The notes beneath the pieces are model-generated. The model saw nothing but the letters and a program-made list of their open reading frames with translations, was not told the DNA's origin and made no database searches. Shown here piece by piece: positions 3,351 through 58,245 of a stretch of DNA of 64,000 nt. Each line of letters opens with the position of its first letter. The stretch's first letter is position 1. Position numbers and translations under genes: made by a program. This stretch comes from Marsupella aquatica (taxonomy: Eukaryota; Plantae; Marchantiophyta): NCBI GenBank assembly GCA_973895155.1, contig OZ316895.1, forward strand, positions 13,441,186 to 13,505,185. The letters are read 5' to 3'.

Positions 3351-3351
3351 A

Positions 3352-20234: not shown

Positions 20235-20613
20235 GAATGCGAAATGGGATACGCGGTATCCCAGTTCATATTCAAAGTCAAGAAAGAGCGAGGAGGTTCG
20301 GATGGAAGACTAAAAAGAGGGTGTTCAATGCGAGATGGGATACGCGGTATCCCATCTCGTATTCAATATTGAAAAGAAGGCCAAATAATAGAGTTGAATA
20401 CAAATGGGGATACGGCGTATCCCTCTCAGGATTCAACAATTAACCAAACGAGGAGGGGAGAGTTTCTTCAGGTTTTACCAATTTTTTGGTTTCGATTCGA
20501 GCAAATACGAAAAGCTATAGAGATGTTGCGGCCCGAGAAAAATGCGGAGGTAAACAAAGTTGATAAGAAAAAGAAATGAGAGTAATTTTTCTGACCAGGC
20601 ACTCCTATTTATA
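20235..20613 (-). promoter_or_regulatory. 5' region of the ParB-MTase gene: three palindromes in a putative 5'-UTR intron, plus a TATA box
   Basis: Palindromes at ~20235, 20326 and 20395. Splice acceptor TTTTCAG at 20138, just before the ATG. TATAAATA at 20613-20606. Confidence 0.55.
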
Positions 20614-23742: not shown

Positions 23743-26700
23743 GTGGGGAGCAGTAGCAGGGACAGTGGATTTTCTGCAGGCGTTGTGGCAGAGCTGACGG
23801 GGTTCACAACGCCATTGATCATCGGCAAGGAATTAAATACCAAGGGATCGGCATACAAGCCGATTACGAGGGCAGAACAAATTGAGGCCCTATTAGAAGC
23901 CGAGAGAGCACAGCGGCCTAACTCTCAGGAGCAAGAGGTGGATGAGATGGACAGACACAATCCAGAGCCAAGGCAGGAAGGGGAGCCGACCACCAATTCA
24001 AAACCGAATAGACCGGCAAGGGGACAATCTATGGACACCAAGGACGGGACCGACTCGGCTAGTCCAGCCGAGATTCCAGTTTATGGAGGTATGAGATTAG
24101 AGCGACTGGAAGCCGAACTGGACCCGAATTTGAAGAAGCAGATTAATATGATCCAAGCACGGCAATATCGGAAGCTCGACTTAGGAGAGGGAAGAGAACT
24201 GAACTTAGGGAGAAACCTAGCACCTGAGCTCGAGAAAGAGATCAGTGACTTATTGATTGAATTTCACGATGTGTTTGCATGGAGTCACCAAGATCTAAAG
24301 GGAGTAGATCCAACACTAGGGGAACATCGAATTGATCTCATGTTAGGAGCCAAATCATTTCGACAACCAATTCGAAGGATGAACCCGAAGTATTCCCTGC
24401 TGGTCAAAACAGAAATCGACAAACTAGTGGAAGCTAGATTCATCACTCCAGTCCTGCATTCAGACTGGGTGTCTCCAATTGTGATAGTTCCCAAGAAAGC
24501 TGGACCCGATGGTAAACCCAAGATCCGAGTTTGTCAGGATTACAGGAAGCTGAATGAAGCAACATTAAAAGACCATTTTCCTTTACCGTTTACTGATATG
24601 GTACTAGACATGGTAGCCAGTCATGAACTATATTCATTCATGGATGGATACTCTGGTTATAACCAAATCAGGATTCGGCAGGAAGACCAAATCAAGACGG
24701 CCTTCATCGATCTATGTCTTCAATCGTATGCCGTTTGGACTCTGCAACGCACCAGCTATGTTCCAACGATTAATGGTGAACATTTTTCATGATTACTTGA
24801 GAAAGTTCATGGAAATCTTCATTGACGACTTTGCAGTATTCGGGAAGGCATCGAAACATGCTAAATACCTCAGGAAAACCTTCATGAGATGTAGAGAGGT
24901 GGGTCTCAAGTTACACCCAGATAAATGTTTTTTTGCAGTAACCGAGGGGGTGCTACTAGGTCACAAGGTATCAAGGAAGGGCATTGAGATTGACAAAGGT
25001 AAGCTAGCAGTATGGCTAGATATCATGCAACCTAAGAACATAAAGGATGTAAGATCCTTCTTGGGATGCATTGGTTACTATCGCCGGTTCATCAAGGATT
25101 TTGCCAAGCTAGCTTTACCATTAACCAATATGCTCAAGGCAGGAGCAGACTTCGAACCCACACCCGAACGAGTCACAGCGGTGGTAGAATTGAAGCAGAT
25201 GTTAGTAGAGGCCCCAGTCATGATAGCACCGGACTGGAACAAAGATTTTCATGTTTTTGTAGATGTCTCGGGCTTCTGTATTGGCTCAGTACTAAGTCAG
25301 TTGGATGAGAAAGGAAGGGACCATCCCATATACTTCGCAAGCCGTCAGCTTGCCGATGCCGAACGGAACTACTCTACCACGGAAAGAGAAGCATTAGGAG
25401 TCATTTATTCTTGTAAAAAGTTTAGGCATTATTTACTAGGGTACAAGGTAATCTTTCATACTGATCATGAAAGTTTGAAGTACCTAGTCAATAAGCCGGA
25501 CCTTACAAGCAGAGTAGCAAGATGGATTTTGCTATTACAGGAGTTTGACTATGAGCTGAGGATCAAGCCGGGAAAGTTACATGCCAATGCCGACTTCTTT
25601 TCAAGGATCACAGGTAAACCTGCCACGGATTGCATCGATGATTGATTCCCCGACGAGGAGCTATTCGTTGTGGAAATAGCTGGTACATGGTACCCTGAGA
25701 TTTTACAATTTCTCAGCACTTCCAGATTACAGCCAGGATTAAGCCGAGAGCAAGCCGCAGTCTTTGTGCGGAAGGTCAGACAGTATCAGTGCATTAAAGG
25801 CATACTGCACAAGCATGGAATCAACGGCATGATTCAAAGATGTTTGGAAAAGAGAGAGCTAAAACGAGTCCTACGGGCCATGCATGGAGAGGAGGCCGGA
25901 GGACATTTTGCCCCAGTAACCACGTCTAAAAAGATATTAAATGCCGGTTACTGGTGGCCCACCTTGCACAAAGATGTCTATCAGTTTATCAAACAATGCG
26001 ATCCTTGTCAACGAGCGGGAGGACCAAGGGCGTCCACCAGGCATCCACTGCACCCTATTCTACCTCTGGCACCATTCAGTGCATTAAAGGCATACTGCAC
26101 AAGCATGGAATCAACGGCACGATTCAAAGATGTTTGGAAAAGAGAGAGGTAAAACGAGTCCTACGGGCCATGCATGGAGAGGAGGCCGGAGGACATTTTG
26201 CCCCAGTAACCACGTCTAAAAAGATATTAAATGCCGGTTACTGGTGGCCCACCTTGCACAAAGATGTCTATCAGTTTATCAAACAATGCGATCCTTGTCA
26301 ACGAGCGGGAGGACCAAGGGCGTCCACCAGGCATCCACTGCACCCTATTCTACCTCTGGCACCATTCGAGAAGTGGGGTATTGATTACATTGGACCTCTG
26401 AAACCACTGACCCACCCTCGACGGAACAAGTACATAATCCTGGCTACGGATTATGCAACTAAATGGGTAGAGGCCAGACCAACAACGAAGGATGATGCAA
26501 TTACTACGGCTAGATTCATGTATGAGCAGATCTTCACCAGGTATGGAGCACCCCTAGAATTAGTTAGTGATAGAGGAACCCATTTTTTGAATGATATAAT
26601 TAGTCGTTTAAATGAGCAGTATTTAGTTAAACATAGGCCTACTACTCCCTACCATCCAAAGGCAAACGGGTTGACAGAACGAGCAAACGGAATTATAGGA

Positions 26701-27288
26701 AAGATATTGAACAAGACAGTAGCTCAGAACAAACTCGATTGGGATGATAAATTGTTTGCTGCTGTTTTTGCTTACAATCTTGCCTATAAATCCACTACCG
26801 GTCATACACCCTTCTTCTTAACCTTTGGACAAGAAGCCCTGGTACCCATGCAACTTGAGATACCGACATTTCAAGTTACAATTGAGGAAAGAGCCTCAGC
26901 GGAGGAGAGCCTAAAGGAGCGAGAATATAGGTTAGAAGCTTTAGAGGAAGCGAGAATGATTTCAGCCGAGAGAGTAGAATATAGACAGAATATCATGAAG
27001 CAGCAGTATGATAAAAGGTTAAAAGTAGTTAGTATTCATACCGGTGATCTTGTGCTACTTTATGACAGTAGGTATAGTAGGTTTCCAGGAAAGCTTTACA
27101 CTCGCTGGTTAGGACCCTTTAGAGTAACCATGATGTTCCCCAATGGCTCCGTACAATTGGCCAACATTACGGGAGAGGTATATCCAGTTCGCATCCATTA
27201 TAACCGCCTCAAGAAATACTATATGGACGAAGATGAAGTTGTTCGCGAGGACGCTTCACAATTAAGTGGGGAGCTATGTGATGCCTAG
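23743..27288 (+). pseudogene. Gypsy B pol (RT, RNase H, integrase), frameshifted
   Basis: Motifs KIRVCQDYRKLN, MDGYSGYNQI, FIDD, VDVSG..YFASRQL, WGIDYIGP, SDRGTHF, NGLTERAN and WLGPF. Confidence 0.95.
25786..26365 (+). repeat. 290-bp tandem duplication in the integrase zinc-binding region, causing a frameshift
   Basis: Copies begin TCAGTGCATTAAAGG at 25786 and 26076 and are nearly identical. Confidence 0.92.
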
Positions 27289-30200
27289 ACAGGAATCACT
27301 CGGCCGGTTAAGTGGGTAAAGCAGGAAGGCACCCTAGGAACACCTTAGTATAGGGACAAAACAAGGAAAATATAAACAATTAAGGGCAACCATGGAACCC
27401 AGGCCGAGGCCGGAGGTAAGGCTGAGGGTGAAAACCCGATTAGGGTTAGGGCGCGTTAAGCGTCGGTGGCTAGGAAGGATCAACGGGAAGAAGGACCAGC
27501 GGAGGAGAGGGGTAAGGAGCGCTTGCAGGAGATGGTGGCTCATTTGCGAGCACGAACTAGGCAGACGACTACGGGAGGCCAACTACTGTCAGCTGCTTAG
27601 GCAAGCACTCGGGGAGAGAGTAGATACCGACGATCGACCTAAGGAGGGTATGAGCAACGTCAATCAAGCGGCACATTTCTGGGGATGCCTGTTCGAACGG
27701 GCAACTGAGTACATCAAGACTTACGAGGACGAGGAATCTGAAAGGGCAGCTCGAGAATGGCAGGAGCTCGCTCGATTGTGGGAGCTGCAGAAGACGGCTT
27801 TCTTAGGAGGCGAACTCATCAAGGACGAGTTCCTGTGGACGCCTACTTCCAATCAACTCGACGATCTTCTGTTTTGCAAAGACAGCGTCGTCGGCATCCA
27901 AGAGGCCATCAAGAACTGCAACGACATACACTGGGAATTAAAGGGTAGCACGGAAAGGTGGACCCAGGCAACGGTGCTAGGAGAAACCTCCACGGCAGCA
28001 GAGATGAAGAGGAAGGGAGCCGTCAACGATGAAGCCACCCCGGCAAAAAGAACGAGGTCGGCGGCACCAAAGAAGCCAGCCGAGCAGCTGAGCAGGAGGC
28101 AGGGAGAAGCCGAAGAGGAGGAGGTCGATCCCATCAAGGCCATTCCAACCAGGGATGACACCTGGAAGGGCTGGGCGGCAACCCTACCGGTGGAGGTGCA
28201 ACTACATTTTGCACGGGAGGAGGATGCATGCTTTACGGCCATGCAGACCAAGAAGTACCAAGGCTTCATGGCCGGATCCGGCTTGGAGGCCTTTGTAAGA
28301 TTACCATGGCTGAAGCCGGAGGTACCGGAGTCAGACCTATTAGAATTCGTGGGGTCATGGGAACCCGAGACCAATTGCACGAGGATATATGGGAAGGATT
28401 TCTATCTTACTCCCAAGGTAATTGCCGAAGTGTTTGGCCTGCCGATAGGCAATAAGACCAAAGTTGATACCAGGAAGACCTTGCCTGACAAGGAGTTCCG
28501 GTCGTTCCCCGGGCCATCAACGAAGAATGGCTTCTTCCGGAACACCTGCACCAACCCGCACATAGGAGAGATGATCGACTTCTTGCGGGTGACCATGCAT
28601 TGTAACTTGCCGAGGGCAGAGATCGGCAAGGCACAGGTCTATCTGGCAGAAAGGCCAGACCCAAGCCGGGACTACAACGGGTACCTCCTCAACCAATTGA
28701 AGAAGATCTTAAAGGAGGAGCAGCAGGTAATCGGCATGGGGAGCGTGTCGCGGCTTGGCTATCACATGCCGCTGTTGTGCCGGTATGCCAGAGGTCAGAC
28801 TTTTGCCCCGGTACTTCCCCTGTAGGTAAGGGCACCCGAGGAAGCTCCAACGCCGAGGCCGTTGGCTGAGAAGCCTCAACCACCTGTTAGTCCTACGATC
28901 GAGCAGGTGTTTAGGCCCAGGAAGGAAGACTTGCCGATGCAGCAACCAGGCATGCAGAGTCTGCTGAAACTACTGGAGAAAGAAAAGAAATCGGCATCGG
29001 CAACAACAACGGCAACGGCAACAATGCAGGACACTACTACAGAGGTAGGCCTACACCGGCTCACAAGAGAAAACCCCTTTGCTGGAGACAAGGAGAGAAT
29101 CAGGCCGGAATCCAAGCCAGGTGTTCGAATGTACGTGGGAACCTCAAGCTCCGAATCTGAGGCAAAATTGTCTGAAGCTCCTACCGACGAAGAGGAGAGG
29201 GAGAAGCCGGACGTCCAAGAGGTAGAGGAGGCAGTGGAGGACTGCAGCCATGATAATTCCGGCTATGGGTCGGACCATCACGTTCCAGGAGTAAGGACCT
29301 GTGGCCGGTTTGTCCCCACACTTCCAAGGGTAGTGCGAGGGGACCCCAACCAGCAGAGTAGCCCTGAGTCTCCCCCACCAGATGTTGCTCCCCCGAGCTT
29401 CGATGGCATAAAACAGACGGTGCAGGAATTTCAGGAGCGAATCAAGCAGGAGGAGGAGGTCGCCCTGGCTAAGGAAAAGGATTTACCAGGAGGAGATTGG
29501 CCGGAGGACATCAGGCGGCTAGCCAAAAAAGGAAGCAAACCTCTAGCCACGATTGAAGAGATCCGCAGGACGGCTTGGGAGCAGAGGCCGCGATGGGCGA
29601 TGCCGATCACTTCTACTTACTCCACCTACGCTAAGAATAGAGCCATGGAGTATGGTGAGATGTGTGGGGAACTTGCGCTCGGCATCTTTGGAGAGGAGTT
29701 GGAGGTAGGACCCTTTTTCCATAGGGAGCAGTTGGAGAAGCACCAATTAGAAGAAGCGGTGGCTTTAGAGAGAAGCAAGAAGGACGAGGTCATTCGGCGG
29801 CTTAGGAGGATGGAAGCCGAGATTGAAGATCTAAGGGCGGCCAAGAAAGCCCAAGATGAACTGCGGATTAAACAACATGAGCTGAACATCATGCAGGGGC
29901 AGTTGGACACCGCGCAGGCTGATAATCAGAATATCAAGGATAAACTGACTCAGACGCAGGAAGAGTTGGCCGACACGATCAAAGAGAGGGAGAAGTGGAA
30001 GCAAGAGCTGAAGAATACAGAGGAGGCCCACATAACAGCCAACAGCCGGGCCATGGCGGAGACCCAAAGAAAGGAATGGGCGTTGAAAGGGGAGCTTGAG
30101 AAAATCCGCGGAGCCCTTGAGCAGAAGGAGGCCGAGTTAGGGAAATCCTATCAAGGGATTATGGCGCTGCAGCAGGAGCTTGCGTCCCTGACGGCCAGCT

Positions 30201-31945
30201 TCAAGGCCGACCTAAGGGAGAAGGACGAGATGCTCGAACAGACTTACGCCAAGATGAACCAGATGGAGTCTGTCATCATTGCAGAGCTCGACAAGGAGCT
30301 AAAAGCAACCCAGGAGGAGAGGACTACCTTGAAACAAGAACGGGAGGAAGCCCAGAAGGAACTAGAGAAGGCACGCAAGGACCTGGATGAGACCCAGGAG
30401 GAGTTGGAGGAAATCACGAGGAAGATGGAGAACCTCCAGCGGCGGGCCGACAACCAAACGGAGCGGCTGAAGAAACAAGCCGCAGTATTTAGGTGCTTGT
30501 CTTCATCAGGCCCAACTCCAATTGGGGCAACCAAGTTACCAGGAGTGGTACTGGCCGAAGAAAAAGCCGCGCCAACTGCACCAGTGCCGGAGGTAAGTGG
30601 GAAGGGGAAGGGACCAGCTGCCGAACCAGAAAAGAAGAAAAAGCGGAAACCTTCAGGGTCAAGGAGTAATCCGACTCCACAAGCCGTGGTGACCAAAGAG
30701 GTAGAACCAGCACCATCCTCCGACATGAATACGGCAATAGATCCCGCTATGATCACAGGTAGGGATGGTGCGGCCCAAGCCGAACTACTCAGTAAGGAGG
30801 CCAGTATTCCAGATCCGCCTCTTGAGCAGGCCGGGGAGACCGTAGCCGAGGCTGAGGCCGTAACCGATTCTCGAGCCGATGCCGACGCCGATGGTGGACC
30901 CAGTCAGGCCGATGGAGAGTTGACTCAGTCAAGGGCAGGTAATCTGTCAGGGAATGAGCCTACGGCAGTGGCTGAGGAGGAAGCGTTGGGGGCGTCCATT
31001 AAGGATCCACCACCGGTGTCGTGACGGTGCAAGGGCGCCGTTCCTTTTAGGGAGGGCGGACGTGGAGGGAGGAGGCGTGAGTGGGCAGGGCGGGCGCGGA
31101 TCTCCACGTTTAGGATTAGGATCAGAACCAGGAACGGCCCTGACACTTAGCTTAGTGGGATTGCGGTCCCACTGGTAGGAGCAACACTTGTGCTCCTGCC
31201 TTGCTGTACATAGGTAGATTCGGGTAAGTAGATTACTGTTAAGTAGATTAGGCTTACGATGCAAAGAATGGCGGATCCACTACCAGGATAAGTACCTGGG
31301 CAGCGGGGAGCTCAGGGCCTCTTCTTTAGCAAGTTTTTAGTTTGCACCAGCCGGGCTGGGATCAAGTAGTACGAGAAGCTCTCGGTTAGTCATACAGTGA
31401 CCCTTGTGTATATTCATGTTTCCTCATGCCTAAGAGCTGAATAGAGTTGGCCTCACGGCTTAGTTCGCAGAACTTGTGTATGAGATGTACTGTTTGTATG
31501 GCAAGTGCATGGTATGACTCAGTCAGAATGAGTCATTTTGCTATTTGTGTGTCGCATTAACTTGTGTGAAGAGTGCCCACATCAACAGAAGGAAGGAAAG
31601 CAAGCAGGGGAGTGAGAGTTGGATGTGTCGAGCTAAGAGAGGTCTTAGCGGCTTAACCAAGCCTATTGGGGATCATTCCGGCGGCGGAATCCAAACATAC
31701 CTAACAAGACGGAGGGGAAGACAGGGGAAGACAGGGGAAGGCCTATATTAGGCCGGCTACGTATCTCATGACCCGATGAAGGATCTGTCCAGTATATGTG
31801 TGTAAAATGTTAATAGTAGTAGTAGAAGGTTAGCAGCGTCCCATGCCGCTAAGCCGCGGAAACGGCCTCGCCAAGCACGAAACCTGCGGGAATCGGCTTG
31901 AGCTGGGGGGTTTCTTGGGTTTAGGGAGCCATGGGACGCACCACA
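27277..31945 (+). repeat. 3' LTR of gypsy B, 4,669 bp, TG...CA
   Basis: Directly follows the PPT AAGTGGGGAGCTA. Both ends coincide with those of the TSD-flanked solo copy at 39067-42358. Confidence 0.93.
27392..31024 (+). pseudogene. ~1,210-codon ORF inside LTR B (plant-transposon/PMD-like domain plus a long coiled coil), with one premature TAG
   Basis: ORFs 27392-28825 and 28862-31024 are in frame, and the TAG at 28823 is CAG (Q) in the solo copy. Motif GLEAFVRLPW...LLEFV...LTPKVIAEVFGLP. Heptad-rich region at ~29730-30480. Confidence 0.85.
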
Positions 31946-32006
31946 TATACGATACTGAATAGTTGTTTAATGGGGTCTAAATACCACCCAGTTTCTACTA
32001 GTGTGC

Positions 32007-33729
32007 GGACGATGCTATCTGTCGAGGTTCACACTATAGTATTTCTAACAAGTCATCCACAATGGCCACACAATTGGTACTATCTGCTAGTGGAACAGGT
32101 TCACTTGTTTCTAGGGGAGGGGGCTGTACAGTGACAGGAGTACAGATCACAAACTCCATTGGTGCTAGTTCTCTTGGGGAAGAGGTCATTCTGACAGGAC
32201 TTAGCTGGTCATGAAATGGTGATCTCAAACTAACAGCCTCCATTCTCAAATTATTAACAGCATCATATAGTCCATCATCACTACAACTGAGGAGAGATGT
32301 CAACTTATCAATAAGCTGCTGATTCGACTCTGCCTTCGAAGGAGTGGACCTGGTGGTCTGATGGGGAGTAGCATCAGTTGGTGTAGCAACATCGTCTTGT
32401 TGATGAATGCTCCTTACTTCTTCAGCTTCTAGTGGATCTGCATCCATAGTCCGGCTAGGGAAATTCTCATTACTTATTGGATGACAAACAACTTCCCTGT
32501 TATGCATAGGAGAATGTGTAGGAACTTCTAATGAAGCATCCTCCATAGGAACATCAGCATTCTCCTCAACGTTCTGATCATTCGAATTCAAAGGGGTGAC
32601 ATGTACAATGTCGTCCATAGGAATTTCTTCTTCAATACCCAGGTCAATTAGGAGTAACCCCCTCTCTGTCTCTTCCTCCGGAGATAAACAGTCATGGGTA
32701 TAATAGAGCTGAGAGAGATAATTCTGTAAGCAAGTGGTCCTCCCCGCTTCCAAGCTCTTTACTTGATCCTTCATTACATTAAACAGAAGTAGGGCCCAAT
32801 TTACTTTTATAGCTCCACTGTGAGCAGCTACAATGGTGTTAGCCAAGGCCACAGGACAGAGAGTTGGCTTTTTCGGATGAAGAATGGGTACCAGGAATTC
32901 CATGAGCACTCTCAATTCAGGATAAGTACACTGGGACAAGTTCCAACCATTCTTGGCATTTTGAGTTCCTGAGAAGTATGGAGTAGGTAAGTCCTGCTTC
33001 TTGGAATATAACGCCTCTCCTTCTGACGGGCATCCAAAGGCGTAAGCAATTTGCTCAACAGTCCACAGGCTGGGGTGAGCTCGAATCGTTCGCCTGAATT
33101 CAATCGGAATGATAGTCCCCTTTACAAAATCCTGTAAGTATGAGTCGAGCTCGACATTCCAGGGAATCTTGAGTAAGCGTTCCAATCCTAAGTGTTGTAA
33201 AGAGTCTTGTAAATTAGAAAGACTATCAGGCGCTCGTGGTATACGAGTTGCCACTACTTTTGAGACTGCTGGAGCTTTAATTTGATACTGTTTCTCAGCA
33301 CCCAGGTTCGCCATAGCCGCGACGGTGATTTGTGTGCTGCAAAGGTTTCTTTTGAAGAGAAAGAGCAAGTGAATAGGGGTGGTGAAAATACAGGAGTGAG
33401 CGCCTGAACTCTCTGCTTGATTCCTATTAAGGTATGAAGTCCCCAATCCGTTTCTAAGTTCCGTTGCGAAGTTAGCCGTAGCGCCGTAACGTACACTTTC
33501 CTTAAACGCGTAAGGTGTAGGCCATAACCCCATATCGGCATAAACCCATAAACCCATAAACCCGTAAACCCGTAAACCCATAACACTTATACGCGTAAAT
33601 GCGTAATCCCGTTATAAAGTATACCCGTAGTTTACACTTGGCATTTTAACAGCAACAGCAGGCTTAAACACTGTAAAAAGTTTAAATTTTTCAGTAATTT
33701 CAGGTTTTCGGTATTACCCAATACTCACA
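32007..33729 (-). repeat. 3' LTR of element A, proximal segment (starts TG at 33729)
   Basis: Directly after the PPT GAGGAGAGGGCTA (33742-33730). The part from 32007 to ~32484 matches 63518-64000. Confidence 0.88.
32034..33314 (-). pseudogene. N-terminal half of the ORF encoded inside LTR A (plant-transposon/PMD-like domain)
   Basis: ATG at 33314. The motif LGLERLLKIPW...LQDFV...WTVEQIAYAFGCP...KNGW resembles the LTR B ORF. Confidence 0.8.
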
Positions 33730-33758
33730 TAGCCCTCTCCTCAAATGGCGCCGTGCCC

Positions 33759-34458
33759 TCACAAGCCTTCAGAATGAGGTAGAAAGTATTTCTTCACCCT
33801 GAAACCATTGATTCTTGTTGCAAGAGGTTCTCCATCCAAAGTTTCTAAAGTTAAGGATCCATTTGGCCATACAGTAACCACTTTGTAAGGCCCTATCCAG
33901 TGAGTAAGGAGTTTCCCAGGGAAAAACATATACCTGGAGTCGTAAACAAGTGCCAAATCTCCCGGTTGGAGAGTAGGTGTTCTCAGCTTTTTATCGTAAG
34001 CTTCTTTCCGTTTGTCCTGTTGATGAAGGGTCTGTTCTAAGGCCAACAGCCTATGCTCTTCTAACTCATCTAGAGTTTCCAGCCTAATGTGGAAGCTATC
34101 CGGTTCAGGTAATCTTTCTGAGATCAGAAGCCGCTCAGTAGGTAATTCAAATTCAATAGGGGTAACACTATGCATACCAAAAGTTAAGTAGAATGATGTT
34201 CTCAAGGTAGTAATCTTTTCTGCGGTTCTGTAAGCCCATAAAGCAGAGTGGAGTTTGATATCCCAATCAGTTTTATGTCCCTCCACCATTTTATTCAATA
34301 TTTTTCCCATTAACCCGTTAGCTCTCTCAGTCAGTCCATTTGCTCTGGGGTTATAAGGTGTGGTCTTTCGATGCTTAATCAGATATTTCTCAGTAATGAG
34401 CTCAATTGTCTCATTAAGGAAGTGGAGGCCTCGATCACTTACTAATTCCAAAGGGCAT
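33759..34458 (-). pseudogene. Element A integrase C-terminal part (with GPY/F motif)
   Basis: CPLELVSDRG..NGLTERAN..WIGPY. Joins ITRYG at 50901 when S2 is removed. Confidence 0.93.
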
Positions 34459-34494
34459 ATCAGCCTATTCATTAAAAGTGTATTATTATTTGAT

Positions 34495-34820
34495 TTATGT
34501 ACATTTGGGCAATGAAAAGTGTACTTTTGGGCTTGAAAAAATGTACATTTGGCCAATGAAAAGTGTACATTTGGGGATAGAAAAGTGTACAATTGGCCTA
34601 AAGAGTGTACATTTGGGCAATGAAAAGTGTATATTTGAACATCAAAATAGGTACATTTGGCTTTAAAAGTGTACATTTGAGTACATTTGGCCTAGAAAGT
34701 GTACATTTGAGTGAAAAAAACATACATTTGGCTTAAAAAGTGTACATTTAAGTGCATTTGGTCTAGAAAGTGTAGCTTTGAGTGCAACAAAGTGTATATT
34801 TGGCCTAAAAAGTGTACCAA
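34495..34820. repeat. S2 left subterminal repeats AAAGTGTACATTTG (more than 10 copies); also at 50767-50845
   Basis: Directly visible next to both TIRs; palindromic TGTACA core. Confidence 0.88.
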
Positions 34821-35064
34821 CTCTTATTATAATCATTTAAAAGAAAGAAATGAATAGAAAAATATTTTTAATTATGCAAAAAAAGCAAACATTCATATTC
34901 ATAACGATCAAAAGTTTAGAAAATAAGGAGATAGTATAACTAACACTCAATGGCATGGTCTCACATTAAAACTATTAAAATAGTAAATAACTAGTAGGTA
35001 CTTGTTACTATCTAAGTAACTATCTATTTAATAATTATTATAGCTTTGCAAGTAACAACTAAGT

Positions 35065-38000
35065 CTACTTGTCCATCCTTTGGAGATAACTTTGGACAGT
35101 TTGTAGAACATTTCGAGGAATCTTCAAACCTCTGCCCGCCATGTTTTCTTCTTTCATGCCAGATTTAAAACCATACATTGCAGAATTTGCATACTGCCAA
35201 TGTTGAGCGTTCTCACCAAACCCTGGATCTCGTTCCCATGTCTTAGTGGACATGAAGCAGTTTAGATACCGTGCACTCTCAGTCACATCAAGTTTAGAGT
35301 GTTTAGGCCTCCACCATTCGACTGGAAACATTGGAGCATATTGTTGAGGCAGAGGAGGGTTTGTTGGAGATGTAGTTGGGACTTCATGCTTAGGGTCAAC
35401 CGAACCCAAAGCTCTCACCAACCAGAAATGACCTCCACCATTTTTATTCTCCCAGTCATCCTCGGGTCGAAGAAATACAAAGTTCCCTTCACAAATATCC
35501 TGTAGGGGAATCCACCGTCCTTGTTCTCTCTCAGCTCGAGATCCAACAAATGGTGCCGCTTGATCTTCCATCTCTTCCAAGACCTCATTTTGAAGAGCCG
35601 TCATCTCCGCATTCTCCTCATCTTCACTTGGAGGACCACTTTGTTCCGGTTGGTTGACCTTGTAACCAGTGCCATGGTTAGTCTTAGGCCAAAATCCGTT
35701 TTTCAAGGGAAATTGAGTACTTCCCTCCCCTTCTAGTGCAAGCCCATTTGTCAACAACTCCACAATTCTCTCCCAATATTTCACAAGAGGAAATCTTTCC
35801 TTATATGCTATAGATGTCTCATAAGTGCAACTCCTTCTCAAAAAATCAAGGTACTTGGTAAGAAATGGGATAATCTCTTCAGATTTTTTGTGTATCTCTC
35901 CAATGGATTTAGCTAAGGGCTCTCCACTAGGTAAAAGAATAGAATTTGTTGTCAGATCTGTTGCCCAAATGCACCTTCCACCAACTGGAGCCCAAGCTTG
36001 CTTTACATGGGACTTATACTGAAATATTGGTACATTATCTCTCATAGAGAAAAGAAATGATACGGGTTTTGAGTGACCTTGAATATCTTTAACTTTGAAA
36101 GTTTGAAGATATTCTTTGTAAGATGCAACTTTTTGTATCAATCTGGGAACTGGATGAATGCTCTCACATTCCCAAACCTCTGCCATAAGAGCAAGGAGAG
36201 TTGCAACTTCCTTGTGCTGAACTTGATATGATACCTTCGAAAAGAGTGCATCAACATCTTCGTGCGTATGACCAACCATTAGAAAAGACATTTGAACAGT
36301 TTCAAATACTCCTCTACTCACAAGCTCACTACAAAATGCCATGACAGTCTGGTTTTTGTTATCCTTTGTTGAGTTATCCATTTGCAGTGTTAGGTGCCTT
36401 GGCAAGGGCTTGAAAGATGGACTGCCTTGTTCCCCATGCATGTCCCCTCCTTGATCCTCACCATGTTGGGTGGAGACCGTCTCCGTCTGACTCTCAGCTG
36501 CATCTTCAGAACCAATATACCTATTCATTGGAATACTCTTTGGTTCCAAATATCCCTTAAAAAATGCATCAAAGCCAAGAAGGGCTTGAAAGAAAGGTCT
36601 ATGAGGTTCCAAATAAAGGCCATCCAACATGTCACCTGTCTTGTCTCCATTGTACTCTTCAAGGTCTCGAAGACACTTAGCCAAGGATGTCACCGTGAAA
36701 TCAGTATCTCCTGGCCAAAGGCCAGTGACACTAAAGTGTGCATATACTCCTGGATCCCTTCCGTGGGTCAACATCCCTGTGAGAGCAATAGGTAGTGGCA
36801 TCCCATGACCGGAAAGTGATTTAGGAGTACTGACCATTTTTGGAATCCACGTCTTTGCTTGATCCATCTTGTCGTGAATGATGCAAAGATATTCCCCTGG
36901 ATGTTGCTTAGCCATCACTCGATGAGCATAGTAAACATATCTACGTGACATTTGCTCACGAAGATGTTGCGCTCGTTTTTCTTCAATTTCAGCACGTTCT
37001 TTTTTCCTTCTTTCTCGCATCAAACTATCTTTGTATTCACAACAAAGAGTACACTTGGCAAATGCACCATCTTTATGGAAACTGAAGTTTGCAAATGATT
37101 TTCTCCAAATCTTGTACAAAGTATTCTCTGTAACTGGGGGAAGCCCCTCTTCCTTCATCTTTGTTCTCACATCTTCCAAAATCTCCAACTTCTTGTAACA
37201 TGCTGGAAGACGATACTCAATGGAGTTGGTCCCATGAGCCCCAGCATAAGGTATATGAGGCATGGGCTCTGCATTTTGAGTCAAAAAATCCTCCAACAGA
37301 GCTCGTGCATGCAAGGTATTTGACCTTGTTTTCATGGAGCCCGTGTTTCCATGGAACCCAATTTTGCAACCCTCCACATATCTCCTTTTGTAATCATAAT
37401 ATTTCGTGTGGCTAAAGCCATGGATGATTGCAAATGCATGTCTACATACGACCATACCCTTGAGAACATGGTGCCCCTTATCACGAACATCATCTTCTCT
37501 GTAGTGGAAGAGGTTGAAAATGTGTGATGTTTTTGACTCGCTATACATTCCGTGAAATTCTATCCGGATATCTTCTATGTCTTCTCTTGGCATAGTCAAA
37601 CAACATTTCTGCTTGCAACAATTCTCTCTTTTAATTTCATCAATCAAAGCTTCCGTTGTTTTTGAAACTGCCTTGGTTTCCAACAGCCTTCTCTTCTTTT
37701 CAATCGGATCTACATGAGTCCTCCTGTTGAAATTGTATGGCCTTGTGCGCGGCATTCCCCTATCATTTACATTTGGATACAGATCATCCCTATCCACCGC
37801 CTCCATCCTCTCTGAACCTTCAACCAAAATGTCCGACAAAAATTTCCCGTTTGCAAGTAGTTTTGTTGAATAAATCCGCCACCGAACCAAAGTGATTACT
37901 CCCCTATGGAAGTTGGGAAAGTATTGTGATTCCACCACATCTTTCACAGCAATCCCTACATGGTCCTCGCCAAGGATTTCATTGTCAACCGCCGCGGTTT

Positions 38001-38808
38001 CTTGAGGCACAGTAATGGTCCCCGTGGCAACCCTATTGGTTCGATCTGAACCAATGTATAGTTCGACCAACTCTGACATCCAATTTGACTGTTGGAAATA
38101 GTCACAATTAGTTTTAGAAATTTCAGCTGAGGGAGACTCCACAACAAAACTCCGCTCTATGTTGATATCATCATCCGCATCCTTCTTTGAGAAACTCTTT
38201 CTACTTAGGACATCTGCCACATCCCAGAGAACCCATGAGTCTTTTGCCTCGTCAATTGTGTCAGCCCCATTGTGTTTGTAAGGTAAAACCCTACTCCCAT
38301 GAAAAACATCAGTGACCCTCACACTGATCCGTGATTCACCAAGTAAAATGTTGTGACATCTTTCCATTGGATTTGTATTGAAAACAACTCCAAGGGCTAC
38401 ACAACACCCAAAGATGAACATTTCAACCTCATCCCCTTGCCTCAGAGTGGTCGATGAGTCCTCCTCTACAGTTGGATTTTTCTCCAAATTACTCTCCGGT
38501 CGATTTGAACAACTACCTACACTAATGCGTTTTTGAGAATTTGTTATCGTTGATAGATATGCGCAAGACAAATCCCAAATAACGCAAGAATCAATGGCAT
38601 CAAAAAGGTTTTCTGCCCGAGGCATTGGAAATGGTAGTTTTGTGGTTTGGTCAAAAACTTTCTCAATGAGAACGCCCATTCGATTCTCTCTCAACAATAT
38701 CTTTTGAACACTATCTTGCGGGTTGATTTTTTGAACTGTCCCGCTTGCAACATCGTAACCACCAATTGTCAATATCACATTGTCGCCTCTCAAAAATATT
38801 CCGGTCAT
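35065..38808 (-). CDS. Intact S2 transposase, 1247 aa (Sola1-like DDE core, three N-terminal En/Spm-type barrel repeats)
   Basis: IIHDKMDQ, LQMDNSTKDNKN and FLMVGHTHEDVDALFS; Cys clusters CCKQKC, VCRHAF and CTLC; uninterrupted frame. Confidence 0.9.
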   Translation of the reverse strand: MTGIFLRGDNVILTIGGYDVASGTVQKINPQDSVQKILLRENRMGVLIEKVFDQTTKLPFPMPRAENLFDAIDSCVIWDLSCAYLSTITNSQKRISVGSCSNRPESNLEKNPTVEEDSSTTLRQGDEVEMFIFGCCVALGVVFNTNPMERCHNILLGESRISVRVTDVFHGSRVLPYKHNGADTIDEAKDSWVLWDVADVLSRKSFSKKDADDDINIERSFVVESPSAEISKTNCDYFQQSNWMSELVELYIGSDRTNRVATGTITVPQETAAVDNEILGEDHVGIAVKDVVESQYFPNFHRGVITLVRWRIYSTKLLANGKFLSDILVEGSERMEAVDRDDLYPNVNDRGMPRTRPYNFNRRTHVDPIEKKRRLLETKAVSKTTEALIDEIKRENCCKQKCCLTMPREDIEDIRIEFHGMYSESKTSHIFNLFHYREDDVRDKGHHVLKGMVVCRHAFAIIHGFSHTKYYDYKRRYVEGCKIGFHGNTGSMKTRSNTLHARALLEDFLTQNAEPMPHIPYAGAHGTNSIEYRLPACYKKLEILEDVRTKMKEEGLPPVTENTLYKIWRKSFANFSFHKDGAFAKCTLCCEYKDSLMRERRKKERAEIEEKRAQHLREQMSRRYVYYAHRVMAKQHPGEYLCIIHDKMDQAKTWIPKMVSTPKSLSGHGMPLPIALTGMLTHGRDPGVYAHFSVTGLWPGDTDFTVTSLAKCLRDLEEYNGDKTGDMLDGLYLEPHRPFFQALLGFDAFFKGYLEPKSIPMNRYIGSEDAAESQTETVSTQHGEDQGGDMHGEQGSPSFKPLPRHLTLQMDNSTKDNKNQTVMAFCSELVSRGVFETVQMSFLMVGHTHEDVDALFSKVSYQVQHKEVATLLALMAEVWECESIHPVPRLIQKVASYKEYLQTFKVKDIQGHSKPVSFLFSMRDNVPIFQYKSHVKQAWAPVGGRCIWATDLTTNSILLPSGEPLAKSIGEIHKKSEEIIPFLTKYLDFLRRSCTYETSIAYKERFPLVKYWERIVELLTNGLALEGEGSTQFPLKNGFWPKTNHGTGYKVNQPEQSGPPSEDEENAEMTALQNEVLEEMEDQAAPFVGSRAEREQGRWIPLQDICEGNFVFLRPEDDWENKNGGGHFWLVRALGSVDPKHEVPTTSPTNPPLPQQYAPMFPVEWWRPKHSKLDVTESARYLNCFMSTKTWERDPGFGENAQHWQYANSAMYGFKSGMKEENMAGRGLKIPRNVLQTVQSYLQRMDK

Positions 38809-39066
38809 TCCTACAACGTGTTCACCTACACAATTTAAAATGTAAAGTATTAGTTAACAATGGTCCCAAATAGGAAGCAGATAGGTGTGAACCCTATCCA
38901 AGGACAGTGCGCAAATAGGGATCATCCCCATCAAGCAAAATAATAGGTCCATAAACAATCCTTAGCTAGCCCTAAGATCCCTGATCCCTATTCAGACGTT
39001 GGATAGGAATGATCCCTGTCCAGACGGTAGATAGGTTCTGTCACTATCCAAACAGTGGACATAGAT

Positions 39067-42000
39067 TGTGGTGCGTCCCATGGCTCCCTAAACCCAAGAA
39101 ACCCCCCAGCTCAAGCCGATTCCCGCAGGTTTCGCGCTTGGCGAGGCCATTTCCGCGGCTTAGCGGCATGGGACGCTGCTAACCTTCTACTACTACTATT
39201 AACATTTTACACACATATACTAGACAGATCCTTCATCGGGTCATGAGATACGTAGTCGGCCTAATCTAGGCCTTCCCTTGTCTTCCCCTCTGTCTTGTTA
39301 GGTATGTTTGGATTCCGCCGCCGGAATGATCCCCAATAGGCTTGGTTAAGCCGCTAAGACCTCTCTCAGCTCGACACATTCAACTCTCACTCCCCTACTT
39401 ACTTTCCTTCCTACTGTTAGTTGATGTGGGCACTCTTCACACAAGTTAATGCGACACACAAATAGCAAAATGACTCCTTCTGACTGAGTCATACCATGCA
39501 CTTGTCATACAAACAGTACATCTCATACACAAGCTCTACGAACTAAGCCGTGAGGCCAACTCTATTCAGCTCTTAGGCATGAGGAAACATGAATATACAC
39601 AAGGGTCACTGTATGACTAACCAAGAGCTTCCCTTACTACTTGATCCCAGCCCGGCTGGTGCAAACTAAAAACTTGCTAAAGAAGAGGCCCTGAGCTCCC
39701 CGCTGCCCAGGTACTTATCTTGGTAGTGGATCCGCCTAATTCTTTGCAGCGTAAGCCTAATCTACCTAACAGTAATCTACTTGCCCGGATCTACCTATGT
39801 ACAGCAAGGCAGGAGCACAAGTGTTGCTCCTACCAGTGGAACCGCAATCCCACTAAGCTAAGTGTCAGGGCCGCTCCTGGTCCTGATCCTAATCCTAAAC
39901 TTGGAGATCAGCGCCCGCCCTGCCCACTCATGCCTCCTCCCTCCACGTCCGCCCTTCCTAAAAGGAATGGCGCCCTTGCACCGTCACGACACCGGTGGTG
40001 GATCCTCAATGGACGCCCCCAATGCTTCCTCCTCAGCCACTGCCGTAGGTTCGTTTTCTGATAGATTACCTGCCCTTGACTGAGTCAACTCTCCATCGGC
40101 CTGACTAGGTCCACCATCGGCGTCGGCATTGGCTCGGGAATCATTATCGGCTACGGCCTCAGCCTCGGCTACGGTCTCCCCGGCCTGCTCAAGAGGCGGA
40201 TCTGGGATACCGGCCTCATGATTGAGTAGTTCGGCTTGGGCCACACCCTCCCCACCCTTGGTGATAGCAGGATCTATTGCCGTTCGGCTTGGGGTCCCCT
40301 CGTGCTACCCTTGGAAGTGTGGGGACAAACCGGCCACAGGTCCTTACTCCTGGAACGTGATGGTCCGACCCATAGCCGGAGTTATCATGGCTGAAGTCCT
40401 CCACTGCCTCCTCTACTTCTTGGACGTCCGGCTTCTCCCTCTCCTCTTCGTCGGTAGGAGCTTCAGGCAATTCTACCTCAGATTCAGAGCTTGAGACTCC
40501 CACATACATTCGAACTCCTGGCTTTGATTCCGGCCTGATTCTCTCCTTGTCTCCAGCAAAGGGGTTTTCTTTTGTAAGCCGGTGTAAGCCTACCTCTGGA
40601 GTAGTGTCCTGCATGGTTGTCGTTGCCGTTGCCGATGCCAATCTCTTCTCTTTCTCCAGTAGTTTCAGCAGACTCTACATGCCTGGTTGCTGCATCGGCA
40701 AGTCCTCCTTCCTTGGTCTAAACACCTGCTCGATCGTAGGGCTAACATGTGGTTGAGGCTTCTCTGCTACCGGCCTCGGTGCTAGAGCTTCCTCGGGTGC
40801 TCTTACCTGCAGGGGAAGTACTGGGGCAAAAGTCTGACCTCTGGCATACCGGCACAACAGCGGCATGTGATAGCCAAGCCGCGACACGCTCCCCATGCCG
40901 ATTACCTGCTGCTCCTCCTTTAAGATCTTCTTCAATTGGTTGAGGAGGTACCCGTTGTAGTCCCGGCTTGGGTCTGGCCTCTCTGCCAGATAGACCTGTG
41001 CCTTGCCAATCTCTGCCCTCGGCAAGTTACAATGCATGGTCACCCTCAAGAAGTCGATCATCTCTCCTATGTGCGGGTTGGTGCAGGTGTTCCGGAAGAA
41101 GCCATTCTTCGTTGATGGCCCGGGGAACGACCGGAACTCCTTGTCAGGCAAGGTCTTCCTGGTATCAACTTTGGTCTTATTGCCTATCGGCAAGCCAAAC
41201 ACTTCGACAATCACTTTGGGAGTAAGATAGAAATCCTTCCCATATATCCTCGTGCAATTGGTCTCGGGTTCCCATGACCCCACGAATTCTAATAGGTCTG
41301 AATCCGGTACTTCCGGCTTCAGCCATGGTAATCTTACAAAGGCCTCTAAGCCGGATCCGGCCATGAAGCCTTGGTACTTCTTGGTCTGCATGGCCGTAAA
41401 GCATGCATCCTCCTCCCGTGCAAAATGTAGTTGCACCTCCACTGGTAGGGTTGCCGCCCAGCCCTTCCAGGTGTCATCCCTGGTTGGAATGGCCTTGATG
41501 GGATCAACCTCTTCCTCTTCGGCTTCTCCCTCCCTCCTGCTCTGCTGCTCGGCTGGCTTCTTTGGTGCCGCCGACCTCGTTCTTTTTGCCGGGGTGGCTT
41601 CATCGTTGACGGCTCCCTTCCTCTTCATCTCTGCTGCCGTGGAGGTTTCTCCTAGCACCATTGCCTGGGTCCACCTTTCCGTGCTACCCTTCAATTCCCA
41701 GTGTATGTCATTGCAGTTCTTGATGGCCTCTTGGATGCCGACGACGTTGTCTTTGCAAAACAGAAGATCGTCGAGCTGATTGGAAGTAGGAGTCCACAAG
41801 AACTCGTCCTTGATGAGTTCGCCTCCTAAGAAAGTCATCTTCTGCAGCTCCCACAATCGAGCGAGCTCCTGCCGTTCTCGAGCTGCCCTTTCTGATTCCT
41901 CGTCCTCGTAAGTCTTGATGTACTTAGTTGCCCGTTCGAACAGGCATCCCCAGAAATGTGCCGCTTGATTGACGTTGCTCATACCCTCCTTAGGTCGATC

Positions 42001-42358
42001 GTCAGTATCTATTCTCTCCCCGAGTGCTTGCCTAAGCAGCTGACAGTAGTTGGCCTCCCGTAGTCGTCTGCCTAGTTCGTGCTCACAAATGAGCCACCAT
42101 CTCCTGCAAGCGCTCCTTACCCCTCTCCTCTTCCGGTCCTTCCTCCCGTTGATCCTTCCTAGCCACCGACGCTTAGCGCGCCCTAACCCTAATCGAGTTT
42201 TCACCCCCAGCGTCCTTACCTCCGGCCTCGGCCCGGGTTCCATAGTCGCCCCTAATTGTTTATATTTTCCTTGTTTTGTCCCTATACGAAGGTATTTCCA
42301 GGGTGCATTCTTGCTTTACCCACTTCACTGGCCGAGTGATTCCTGGCTAGGCATCACA
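39067..42358 (-). mobile_element. Solo LTR of gypsy family B with a ~1.38-kb internal deletion
   Basis: TG...CA ends and 5-bp TSD TAGAT (39062-39066 and 42359-42363). Inverted copy of 27277-31945 lacking ~29350-30730. Confidence 0.95.
39984..42243 (-). pseudogene. LTR B ORF retained in the solo LTR (coiled coil deleted, premature stop)
   Basis: ORFs 40675-42243, 40216-40641 and 39984-40244 are nearly identical to 27392-31024. Confidence 0.88.
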
Positions 42359-53900: not shown

Positions 53901-54199
53901 GTCCGTTCCCCTAGCAGGGGTGTATCCTCAGTTAACTCATGTATTTGAGTTTTAATCTCTTCAGATATATCAGGCTGAAAGTACTTGGGGTCATACCTGT
54001 TATATGCTGGGTCATCTTCTTTTGGGATTCCTTCCTCTGCTGGTATCCTTGTCTTACTCTTCTTTTTGGATGATTTCTTCTGCTTAGACCCCATCCTTAA
54101 TATGTTTCTTTTCGTGATGAGACTTGGATCTGGTAGTGACGTAAGTTTCCAGAACACGGTCCCGTTCTTGGACTCATTGGTTGGGCATCCCCACAACAT
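50901..54199 (-). pseudogene. Element A pol: protease, RT, RNase H and integrase N-terminus, with in-frame stops
   Basis: Motifs VPVDGGSSVNIM, LLGRPWL, KIRVCQDFRKLN, LDGYSGYNQ, FIDD, YIDAS, YYASRQ, HHCC and WGIDFIGP. Confidence 0.95.
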
Positions 54200-56333: not shown

Positions 56334-57076
56334 CCCACATTCTAAGGGTTGATCTTCCTTGGTGGTAGGCTATGGCGTCGGGTTGACCCTTAGTCTTTCT
56401 TGAACCGTCTCCCTTAGCAGGAACAATCGCGTCCCTTGGTATCGTGCCTTTTCCGCTGGGGTCTTATGGGCGGTATGTCCGAACAGTCAGAAGACTCAGT
56501 CGCGAGTCAAAGAGACGCAACATTGACTCGTAACTCCTCAACCTCAAAAATGTCAACCCGTCAACTTGTAAACACATAAATTTGTAGAGACGTAAAGGCA
56601 TAAAGGCGTAAACGTAAAGTCATAACTCCGTAAAATCGTAGAGTCGTAAACCCGTAATGTTTTACCTGTAATGGCGTCTCCTCATTTTACGGTGGTGCCC
56701 CTTGGAAAGTGTCTCTCCCCTGATTGGTTTACAACCAACTTTGGCTCGTCCTTCCTTATCTGAGTCTTCTATTTTGATTTTGCAATATTGTTCTAGCTAA
56801 TTCTTGTATGGAGATAAGGATATACTCCTCTCCAGTAACTTTAAAATAACCAGATGCAAAGCTACTCCTTCCCACCAGGTAATACTCAACCAATGAATAC
56901 CCCTCCTTCCTTTTAGGGACAATACCCATGTTTGAACATACCAATTATGCAAATTCCTTACTCTCACAGTGCCTAAAGACCTGATCAGAGGCATTTCAAT
57001 TATTTTGCCACATTGCTTATTCAAAGTTAGAATCAAGGTTTTACTTTGGAGAAATCCCCCCTTCTGTTGTCCTCTT

Positions 57077-57937: not shown

Positions 57938-58225
57938 CTCTTGCTTGGAAAGGATATTCCCCTACTAAGCACCACTTAATCTTTCCTTCTTGGCCTTAGC
58001 TCTCCTCTTTCTTTCCAAAATTGTGGCAGGATTTTCTCCTCCAATCCTTTCCCTAAATGCCTCGGGTGCATTTTCCACTGTATAAGGTCAAATTTCTAGC
58101 CTTGGAATTGCCCATTCTCCAATAGGTTCCATGGTGGCAATCACCCTTATTTTATTCCATCATTTTTACTGAATTAAAACCTTCTTTTGGCATTCACTGC
58201 CTGTACTTCAAACCTTCCTTGATTT

Positions 58226-58245
58226 GTTCCCCGGCAGCGGCGCCA
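58226..58245 (-). other. Primer binding site complementary to tRNA-Asp
   Basis: TGGCGCCGCTGCCGGGGAAC, 9 nt inside the LTR end; Athila-type PBS. Confidence 0.9.

Follow-up and report, generated by a model that had tools for sequence, protein, structure and literature searches.

The window, a 64,000-nucleotide stretch of Marsupella aquatica contig OZ316895.1, contains parts of two Ty3/gypsy families, here called A and B, whose features are collected in Table 1. Family B is represented by a pol remnant; the window contains neither the 5' LTR of this element nor its gag and protease. This remnant carries a frameshift near 24705, a stop at 25643-25645, and a 290-bp tandem duplication (25786-26367), and its integrase frame runs to a stop 12 bases inside the unit that follows. 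That unit, the family B 3' LTR, spans 27277-31945 on the + strand (4,669 bp), has TG..CA ends, and is directly preceded by the purine tract AAGTGGGGAGCTA, giving an exact PPT|TG junction at 27277. The long open reading frame (ORF) within it is interrupted in this copy, where codon 478 (28823-28825) is an in-frame stop.

Table 1. Positions of family A and family B features in the window
Feature	Position	Strand	Remarks
Family A 3' LTR, second part	4203..6504	-
Family B pol remnant	24016..27288	+	RT-RH-INT, no chromodomain; 5' half of element missing
Polypurine tract (PPT)	27264..27276	+	At pol end, used as LTR boundary
TATAAA box	27371..27376	+	Upstream of ORF; candidate promoter
LTR-borne ORF	27392..31024	+	1,210 codons; true start may instead be ATG 27650
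Conserved core domain	28142..28822	+	aa 251-477; dN/dS 0.06
Predicted long coiled coil	29732..30481	+	aa 781-1030
Degenerate PPT-like motif	31032..31061	+	Just past ORF stop; candidate vestige of a former 3' PPT, weak
Non-coding 0.9-kb tail	31062..31945	+	Likely ancestral LTR, with putative genomic promoter, R, and U5
Family A 3' LTR, first part	32004..33729	-	With homologous ORF (ATG 33314)
Family A integrase end and PPT	33730..34465	-
Family B solo LTR	39067..42358	-	3,292 bp; ORF broken
Family A 5' extra ORF, gag, and pol	50957..57961	-	Up to DNA-transposon insertion
Family A primer binding site (PBS)	58228..58245	-
Family A 5' LTR	58255..64000	-	Cut by window edge; with 3' two-thirds of A ORF

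A preliminary description of this DNA had placed a gene of about 1,200 codons wholly within an LTR, starting 115 bp past the PPT/TG boundary, and had reported the same unit alone at 39067-42358 with TG..CA ends and a TAGAT target duplication. Each of these points held up: the 1,210-codon ORF lies inside 27277-31945, its first ATG is exactly 115 bp in, and the solo LTR has TG..CA ends with TAGAT on either side. The solo copy sits in a 28-bp tandem array that continues at both flanks. It has lost about 1,376 bp (29350-30726 of the PPT-adjacent copy), and with them the whole coiled coil; its frame is lost at the deletion, and it has a stop of its own near codon 522. Both B ORF copies in the window are therefore broken.

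No two-LTR full-length copy of family B was seen, the B copy in the window being 5'-truncated. Internal direct repeats are absent from 27277-31945, so the unit is not an LTR-internal-LTR element, and it also lacks long inverted ends. A PBS-like site lies behind the 3' end of a B-type unit in one contig of run X6 and one of run X4; these runs represent two organisms and two studies, run X7 yielded no contig, and the window's own B copy has no PBS. The X6 junction contig has a depth of 21.7, against 7.2-9.6 in three single-flank contigs. The B-type PBS may match tRNA-Asn, which along with tRNA-Asp is a primer of Athila elements. Separately, the summed contig depth of ORF plus tail was 3.1-4.5 times that of pol in runs X1 and X2, a depth ratio that is not equivalent to copy number.

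Family A, a near-complete second family, has a homologous ORF in both of its 4.0-kb LTRs; its 5' LTR is followed by the PBS and gag, and its 3' LTR is preceded by the PPT. Within the 5' LTR, a solo LTR occupies 60351-63298, and the 3' LTR is split by a CACTA element (6505-32003, TGC duplication) that itself contains element B. The two copies show 30 mismatches in 2,789 positions. The PBS differs by one base from the published tRNA-Asp PBS of FIDEL, an Athila element, and RT-RH identity between A and B is only about 59%.

The unit might instead be a separate mobile cassette (a DNA transposon, TRIM, or LARD) that inserted by chance at the pol end, as its occurrence alone with a target duplication and the lack of a B 5' LTR in the window would allow. 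This is very improbable given the exact PPT|TG junction, the PBS behind the 3' end in relatives, the lack both of direct repeats inside the unit and of long inverted ends, and the full layout of family A. The sequence at 27277-31945 as a whole is an LTR, and the Ty3 element to which it belongs is a non-chromovirus of bryophyte type. The preliminary description had read the whole unit as an LTR, and the PBS junction in relatives and the A ORF in both LTRs now carry that reading. It had also named short LTRs with an internal ORF as contrary evidence; family A instead shows the ORF in both of its 4.0-kb LTRs. The gene thus almost certainly sits inside the LTR.

Several comparisons support the ORF being a real gene under purifying selection. 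Its dN/dS is 0.28 (744 codons, p 2.5e-9) overall and 0.059 in the core domain, while the other two frames of the region give values of about 1. Short indels keep the frame in 3/3 cases in the ORF and in 0/3 cases in the tail, and homologues are found at 42% identity or lower (these alignments exclude P0005, P0017, and P0021, 3 of 21 representative hits, which carry unrelated Ig or helicase-associated repeats). The chance that the ORF is instead a neutral by-product of base composition appears negligible. Such a by-product would fit the broken state of both B copies, the dN/dS of 0.71 at codons 1-81, and the run variants, of which 14 of the 33 listed are synonymous against 10.1 expected (p ~0.10); the low dN/dS, the indel pattern, and the diverged homologues speak against it, and dN/dS rules it out for codons 87 onward. 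Neutral evolution, the other outcome that the preliminary description had set against its own claim, is thus not what these values show. An alternative frame at 27532, whose product presumably resembles a histone H3 tail, was discarded, as it meets a stop in the solo copy while the main frame stays synonymous. No relatives of the B ORF were found in the viral or metagenome contigs searched, and a word-based search found no longer homologues.

The assignment to Ty3/gypsy rests on the pol order RT-RH-INT, TG..CA ends with the 5-bp TAGAT duplication, a PPT abutting the 3' LTR, and the PBS seen in X6, X4, and family A. Pfam scans of the B, A, and L002 pol, together with Pfam lists of the closest relatives, revealed neither a chromodomain nor an extra (archaeal-type) RNase H; for B, the scan covered the copy from RT onward, the region upstream of RT being missing. 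When viral and prokaryote collections were scanned with pol, no nearer relative emerged. In an RT-RH tree without rows named as Tat, Phygy, or Selgy, angiosperm Athila elements form a separate 12-row clade (support 100/100) and B falls in a bryophyte group; the tree leaves the branching among A, L002, and the B/L001 group unresolved. The Tat clade with extra RNase H was rejected for B because that domain is absent, and so was Phygy, which has a 4-bp NCGN duplication and a tRNA-Trp PBS (PMC6317226, supplement 3), because the duplication in B is the 5-bp TAGAT. The liverwort Tat Z2/Tat Z1 elements share with B a non-chromovirus character and a plain pol structure, being described in the available part of PMC13468544 (section 2.5) as lacking the extra RNase H; that part describes no LTR-borne ORFs for them. 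B may belong to these elements.

Athila elements share with B the RT-RH-INT order, the lack of a chromodomain and of an extra RNase H, the 5-bp duplication, a short AT-rich spacer between LTR and PBS, and a sense extra ORF behind pol. In excerpts of PMC6317226 and PMC11728184, this 3' ORF is ATHILA ORF-1 (PF03078) or Transposase_32 (PF20167), and the accessible portion of bioRxiv 10.64898/2026.03.20.713144 places it after pol but before the PPT, in elements whose LTRs measure about 1-2 kb. In A and B, by contrast, the ORF lies behind the PPT in LTRs of 4.0-4.7 kb. B also differs in its RT-RH, which lies outside the angiosperm Athila clade, and in its core domain, which has no Pfam match.

The B core may be a distant member of the ATHILA ORF-1/Transposase_32 group. 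Pfam gave no match for the B or A core domain at E 1 (including PF20167, PF03078, and DUF1985), and a direct profile comparison matched the core weakly to Transposase_32 (hhalign E 0.0075 over 43 columns; E 0.43 from the A side). Among Atlas features, 24/30 matches of the A domain were to Transposase_32 and 4/30 to ATHILA, at 0.92, and the B domain fell with a DUF1985 cluster at 0.89. For the A-side domain there were two weak viral matches, which a profile comparison did not bear out, and a PDB sequence search gave no match, one hit at E 0.039 being taken as chance.

Structural models added a further lead. A first model of the core (pLDDT 59) had no meaningful fold match, and a second (pLDDT 69) had none in BFVD and none by Foldseek in PDB. 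In a comparison with 48,161 chains, the first-ranked match was the VANC21-DNA complex 9lnk_A (rmsd 4.7, 152/194 residues) at Z 4.2, which is below the range that the fold-comparison tool calls meaningful; this match was missing with the first model and missed by Foldseek. VANC proteins, according to the part of PMC5735166 available, carry DUF1985 and bind repeated short motifs. Family-specific CG-containing repeat clusters occur in A and L002, the motifs having been picked after the fact; the B LTR has none. VANC21 possibly shares a fold with the B protein; both are element-encoded accessory proteins, and family-specific repeated motifs are present in the relatives A and L002. VANC21 differs in being borne by a DNA transposon (VANDAL21, Mutator-like) and in having no sequence-level match with B, which itself lacks a repeat cluster.

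Together, these weak but converging leads suggest that the modeled core is a VANC-like anti-silencing DNA binder. The B protein has basic NLS-like runs at aa 217 and aa 1081 and no transmembrane helix, both by prediction. It would act, on this prediction, in the nucleus as a VANC-like factor that binds DNA and opposes silencing. Its core would bind family-specific DNA motifs and counter methylation-based silencing, and its coiled coil would serve as an oligomer or scaffold; we put this mechanism forward tentatively, as slightly short of an even prospect. The LTR layout could also stand with a different protein function, in which the coiled coil would serve particle assembly, nuclear import, or the targeting of integration. 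Coiled coil and low-complexity linker make up half of the protein, the VANC fold and profile links are weak, and the available text of PMC7264820 gives the function of the plant extra ORF as unknown. Such a role is possible but doubtful, since it is the core domain that is under the strongest selection, the DUF1985/Transposase_32 group is indicated by three separate weak leads, and no transmembrane helix is predicted.

How the gene may have entered the LTR is suggested by the relative L002, a single circular assembly whose ~1-kb LTR edges are inferred from motifs. Its order is pol, PPT|GG, homologous ORF, PPT|TGTGATG, 992 bp, and PBS. The B and A/L001/L002 core domains are homologous (hhalign 91.5%, E 8.5e-7), with a profile built from B-side sequences alone reaching L002 only at E 0.3. 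Plus-strand priming, at first from a PPT located behind the gene, would have shifted to the PPT at the pol end. The left LTR edge would be set by the PPT primer, so the intervening sequence would enter both LTRs after such a switch: once the upstream PPT was followed by TG and the downstream PPT decayed, everything between them would be copied into both. We consider this edge logic fairly probable, and a switch to the upstream PPT likely carried the gene into U3.

The PPT-like motif in B lies where L002 has its 3' PPT (p 0.022 near the stop, 0.22 across the LTR); a scan with a PPT matrix, one row of which is off by one base, found no such vestige in family A. That absence, the LTR-borne layout shared by A, B, and possibly L001, and the unresolved branching of these with L002 would also fit an ancestral LTR-borne state, with L002 having gained a PPT behind its ORF, or a capture by a strand-transfer or recombination accident. 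Both seem unlikely beside the B remnant and the angiosperm Athila outgroups, which have the ORF before the PPT (4/7 loci long enough to show a tract). The same order is given in excerpts of PMC7264820, where plant extra ORFs normally precede the PPT, in agreement with the preliminary description's statement on Athila/Tat elements.

The gene would keep a promoter of its own within the LTR's first 100-400 bp and genomic RNA would start in the 0.9-kb tail, so that a solo LTR, if intact, would be a gene complete in itself. Given the TATA box 21 bp ahead of the first ATG, such independent expression is no more than plausible, and we hold the chances of this arrangement to be evenly balanced. In the preliminary description's inference, a solo LTR would leave a trans-acting factor behind; the solo copy here is broken. 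The gene could alternatively lie in R or U5, with one promoter at the LTR start driving the genomic RNA, the ORF at the beginning of that RNA, and gag reached by splicing or re-initiation. The TATAAA at offset 95 is indeed the only one in the B LTR, and TATA-like boxes and pyrimidine-rich leaders precede the ORF in A and L001. This arrangement would, however, need about 4.5 kb of strong-stop DNA; moreover, the L002 LTR lies behind the ORF and the genomic promoter thus does so too, and the family A tail also has a TATAAA and a repeat cluster. We therefore regard it as improbable.

No plant precedent for an LTR-borne gene was found in the literature searched. The closest layout is that of MMTV, whose accessory gene sag, a membrane superantigen gene, lies in U3 and lengthens the LTR (excerpts of PMC9147501); the likeness is one of layout, with no sequence relation claimed, and the MMTV LTR is about 1.3 kb against 4.7 kb in B, whose ORF is 3.6 kb and its product predicted to be nuclear. 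Other plant Ty3 elements also carry extra ORFs, such as ORF0 in Retrosat2/RIRE3 (Retrosat2 LTRs >3.2 kb; PMC3485330) and antisense ORFs in Retand/Grande, the Grande gene having its own promoter (PMC11963269, PMC7264820). In the available parts of these sources, such ORFs lie upstream of gag-pol or in the internal stretch that separates pol from the 3' LTR, and none is placed within the LTR.

Taken as a whole, the reading that a 4.7-kb Ty3 LTR contains a real accessory gene, captured into U3 by a PPT switch and encoding a VANC-like anti-silencing factor, strikes us as moderately probable. A broader version is speculative and rather unlikely: a bryophyte Ty3 lineage would have moved a VANC-like gene and its promoter into U3, intact solo LTRs would be autonomous counter-silencing cassettes, and VANC would have its retrotransposon counterparts in the Athila ORF1/Transposase_32 proteins. 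What Athila-type extra ORFs do is a long-standing question, and with the fold lead to VANC21 and the repeats specific to each family, binding and methylation become directly testable. Plant LTRs are treated as non-coding, and surveys assign extra ORFs to the internal part of the element; such elements and genes would escape pipelines that set short LTR limits (ATHILAfinder default, 1-2 kb) or mask LTRs. Here a selected 3.6-kb gene lies within the LTR in two families, and the relative L002, with its likely pre-capture layout, offers a simple route for kilobase LTR growth in one step. With this layout the gene would be doubled at every insertion, and if the broader version is true, LTR recombination, the host's main purge route, would seed the genome with trans-activators.

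Self-comparison of the window found the family B unit twice, once as the 3' LTR of a Ty3 element and once as a broken solo LTR on the opposite strand; the integrase frame of the Ty3 pol, with Pfam RT, RH and INT domains upstream, ends 12 bases within the former. As the preliminary description had reported, the ORF lies 115 bp behind the polypurine tract (PPT)/TG boundary (ATG at 27392; 1,210 codons), and the unit recurs alone with the same TG..CA ends and TAGAT on both sides. The solo copy is embedded in a 28-bp tandem array that goes on past both flanks; it lacks ~1,376 bp, loses frame at that gap and has a separate stop near codon 522, and the ORF of the 3' LTR copy is interrupted by an in-frame stop at codon 478. 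No internal direct repeat was found within the unit, and no 5' LTR, gag or protease of this B element in the 64-kb window. The B integrase holds a near-perfect (99%) 290-bp tandem duplication (25786-26367), possibly a recent event, or else an artifact of assembly.

Coordinates of LTRs, primer binding site (PBS) and family-specific short CG repeat clusters; L001 and L002 are related elements
Feature	Position	Strand	Remarks
B 3' LTR	27277-31945	+	4,669 bp; starts TGTGATG straight after AAGTGGGGAGCTA; terminates CACCACA
B solo LTR	39067-42358	-	termini identical to 27277-31945 copy; TAGAT at each side
A 5' LTR	64000 to 58255	-	cut by window edge
A PBS	at 58245	-	
A 3' LTR	33729-32004 + 6504-4203	-	~4.0 kb in total; split by CACTA element
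CG clusters, A	33500-33620, 5100-5200, 56550-56660	-	
CG clusters, L002	636-706, 5059-5129, 6739-6803, 7991-8021		
CG clusters, L001	2700-2830		

Part of the stretch is present in 13 of the 15 public sequencing runs listed, and more than half of its words in six. At the 3' end, contig matches in three of four runs break off at 31945-31946 into many differing flanks, and TTTTTGGCGCTAGATGGAGGGG, a PBS-like site, follows the unit in at least one contig each of runs X6 and X4, which come from different organisms and different studies. The X6 contig with this site has a depth of 21.7, versus 7.2 to 9.6 in three single-flank contigs, and an X6 match begins exactly at 27277 with a different flank upstream. 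No full-length B copy was seen in the window or the public run contigs. At 31037, contigs with other upstream sequence join (nine in run X1, 37 in run X2), marking a subfamily with a different ORF end.

Family A, a second Ty3 family, is near-complete on the minus strand (5' LTR, PBS, 5' extra ORF, gag, pol, PPT, 3' LTR) and carries the ORF in both LTRs, which show 30 differences over 2,789 aligned positions; in the 5' LTR, the ORF is inside the window only from about codon 279 on. The conserved cores of the A and B ORFs are homologous (tblastn within the window, E 0.001; profile-profile comparison, 91.5%, E 8.5e-7, 155 columns). Because of the 3' junctions in run contigs, this near-complete family and the core homology, the earlier proposal that the whole B unit is an LTR is well supported, and the gene-in-LTR architecture is real. 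An in-frame stop after codon 426 is common to the two A LTRs (32034-32036 and ~63550, minus strand), and the frame then stays open for ~390 further codons, which could reflect two genes, read-through or damage already present in the parent element. A 294-codon ORF without a Pfam match lies between PBS and gag (57077-57961, minus strand), and family A therefore has extra ORFs at both ends.

Several other elements are nested here. A CACTA element (6505-32003; CACTAGTAGAAAC ends, TGC duplication; 25.5 kb after nested insertions) splits the A 3' LTR and contains element B, which terminates 58 bp short of its right end. The A 5' LTR holds a third-family solo LTR (60351-63298; 2.95 kb, TG..CA, CCAAG duplication, no long ORF), and the A integrase a 16.5-kb DNA transposon block (34466-50956) that carries 22-bp subterminal repeats along with a DUF7869 ORF of 1,262 codons (35065-38853). 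Two related, DNA-transposon-like gene sets lie at 44935-50491 (+) and 16499-20265 (-); one has an ORF matching N6/N4 DNA methylases (E 1e-5) and, in a neighbor of that ORF, a NIF phosphatase domain, and the second a methylase-like ORF, by eye. At 1-3837 (+) is a third, distant Ty3 pol, and the integrase tail behind it shows, by eye, cysteines in a PHD-finger-like arrangement.

Neutral evolution of the ORF, which the preliminary description had named as a refuting outcome, does not hold for B: dN/dS is 0.28 across 744 shared codons (p 2.5e-9) and 0.059 in residues 256 to 477 (p 1.6e-5), whereas the two alternative frames give 0.97 and 1.02. Since codons 1 to 81 give 0.71, not significant, the ATG at 27650 may be the true start. 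Short indels between the B copies keep the frame in three of three cases in the ORF and none of three in the non-coding 0.9-kb tail; the common indels in the lists for four runs, 12 altogether, fall in the tail (nine), pol (two) and near the ORF end (one), with none in 27392-30957. Among 33 substitutions in the run lists, 14 were synonymous where 10.1 would be expected (p about 0.10). TATAAA at 27371, upstream of the ORF, is a candidate element that suggests a dedicated promoter for the gene. A search of 1.84 billion representatives returned 21 matches (top identity, 42%), three of them unrelated repeats that were dropped; Calypogeia fissa is the sole source of named relatives. Besides the core, the protein has a coiled coil of 250 residues (heptad p 0.005) and two basic stretches resembling NLSs; no membrane helix is predicted.

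The ORF core has no Pfam or PDB sequence match. At 0.92, Atlas features link the A core to Transposase_32 (24/30 hits) and ATHILA ORF-1 (4/30); for the B core they lead to streptophyte clusters without a name, to a DUF1985 cluster (0.89) and to one in which PMD makes up 14% (0.87). Profile comparison to Transposase_32 loci gives a weak match. For the better of two structure models (pLDDT 69, pTM 0.59), the top chain of 48,161 is 9lnk_A, a VANC21-DNA complex, at a low Z of 4.2 (rmsd 4.7, 152/194 residues), ahead of a runner-up at Z 3.2 over 81 residues; this match, to a protein already under consideration as a candidate, is absent with the second model and with Foldseek. VANC proteins, anti-silencing factors of VANDAL DNA transposons, contain DUF1985 and bind short motifs repeated across the element's non-coding DNA (PMC5735166). 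The CG repeat clusters of A, L001 and L002 resemble these targets; none is found in B. One CG-containing hexamer of A, chosen after the fact, has 14 copies in 2.6 kb of non-coding sequence and none in 7.8 kb of coding sequence, and in L002 an 8-bp CG array recurs at four sites. We tentatively predict that the B product is a VANC-like anti-silencing DNA binder, a possible reading, if somewhat short of probable.

Among named sequences, the nearest pol relatives come from liverworts (Calypogeia, 69%; Riccia, 54 to 57%). In an RT-RH tree of 35 rows, provisionally labeled from Pfam lists and without named Tat, Phygy or Selgy rows, B clusters with rows from Calypogeia and others without a name (100/98). 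One 15-row clade (96/90), whose internal branching is not settled, takes in A, B, L001 and L002, and the Athila-type rows of angiosperms stand apart in a clade of their own (100/100). A liverwort host is therefore likely. The lineage may belong among the liverwort Tat elements described as lacking an extra RNase H (PMC13468544). As for precedent, MMTV, with an LTR of 1.3 kb, has its sag gene overlapping U3 (PMC9147501); our literature search found no plant element whose LTR contains a complete ORF, and subscription papers (e.g., Steinbauerova 2011), Repbase entries or bioRxiv supplements could contain one.

The circular L002 assembly (10,729 bp; 59% RT identity) reads pol, a PPT then GG, the homologous ORF, a second PPT then TGTGATG, 992 bp to CTACA, a PBS like that of A, and gag, its LTR edges being set by motifs rather than flanks; the ORF is therefore internal, flanked by two near-identical PPTs. 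In A and B, TG comes right after the PPT at the end of pol, which there forms the LTR edge, and L001 runs PPT-TG, TATA box and ORF before stopping 218 bases past the ORF stop. Directly behind the B ORF stop lies a degenerate, weakly supported PPT-like motif, the best such site in the B LTR (p 0.022 in its neighborhood, 0.22 across the LTR); no such motif is present in A. A Transposase_32 ORF is present in all seven Athila-type loci from angiosperms, with a G-rich tract behind it in the four that show one (three times in locus L026), and Wright and Voytas reportedly noted more than one PPT in Athila in 2002. The left LTR edge is determined by the plus-strand primer, so that a switch of priming to the upstream PPT would place the gene, together with its leader, in the U3 region of each LTR. 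From the angiosperm outgroup we infer that the switch probably ran in this direction, and a one-step origin of the LTR-borne gene is plausible.
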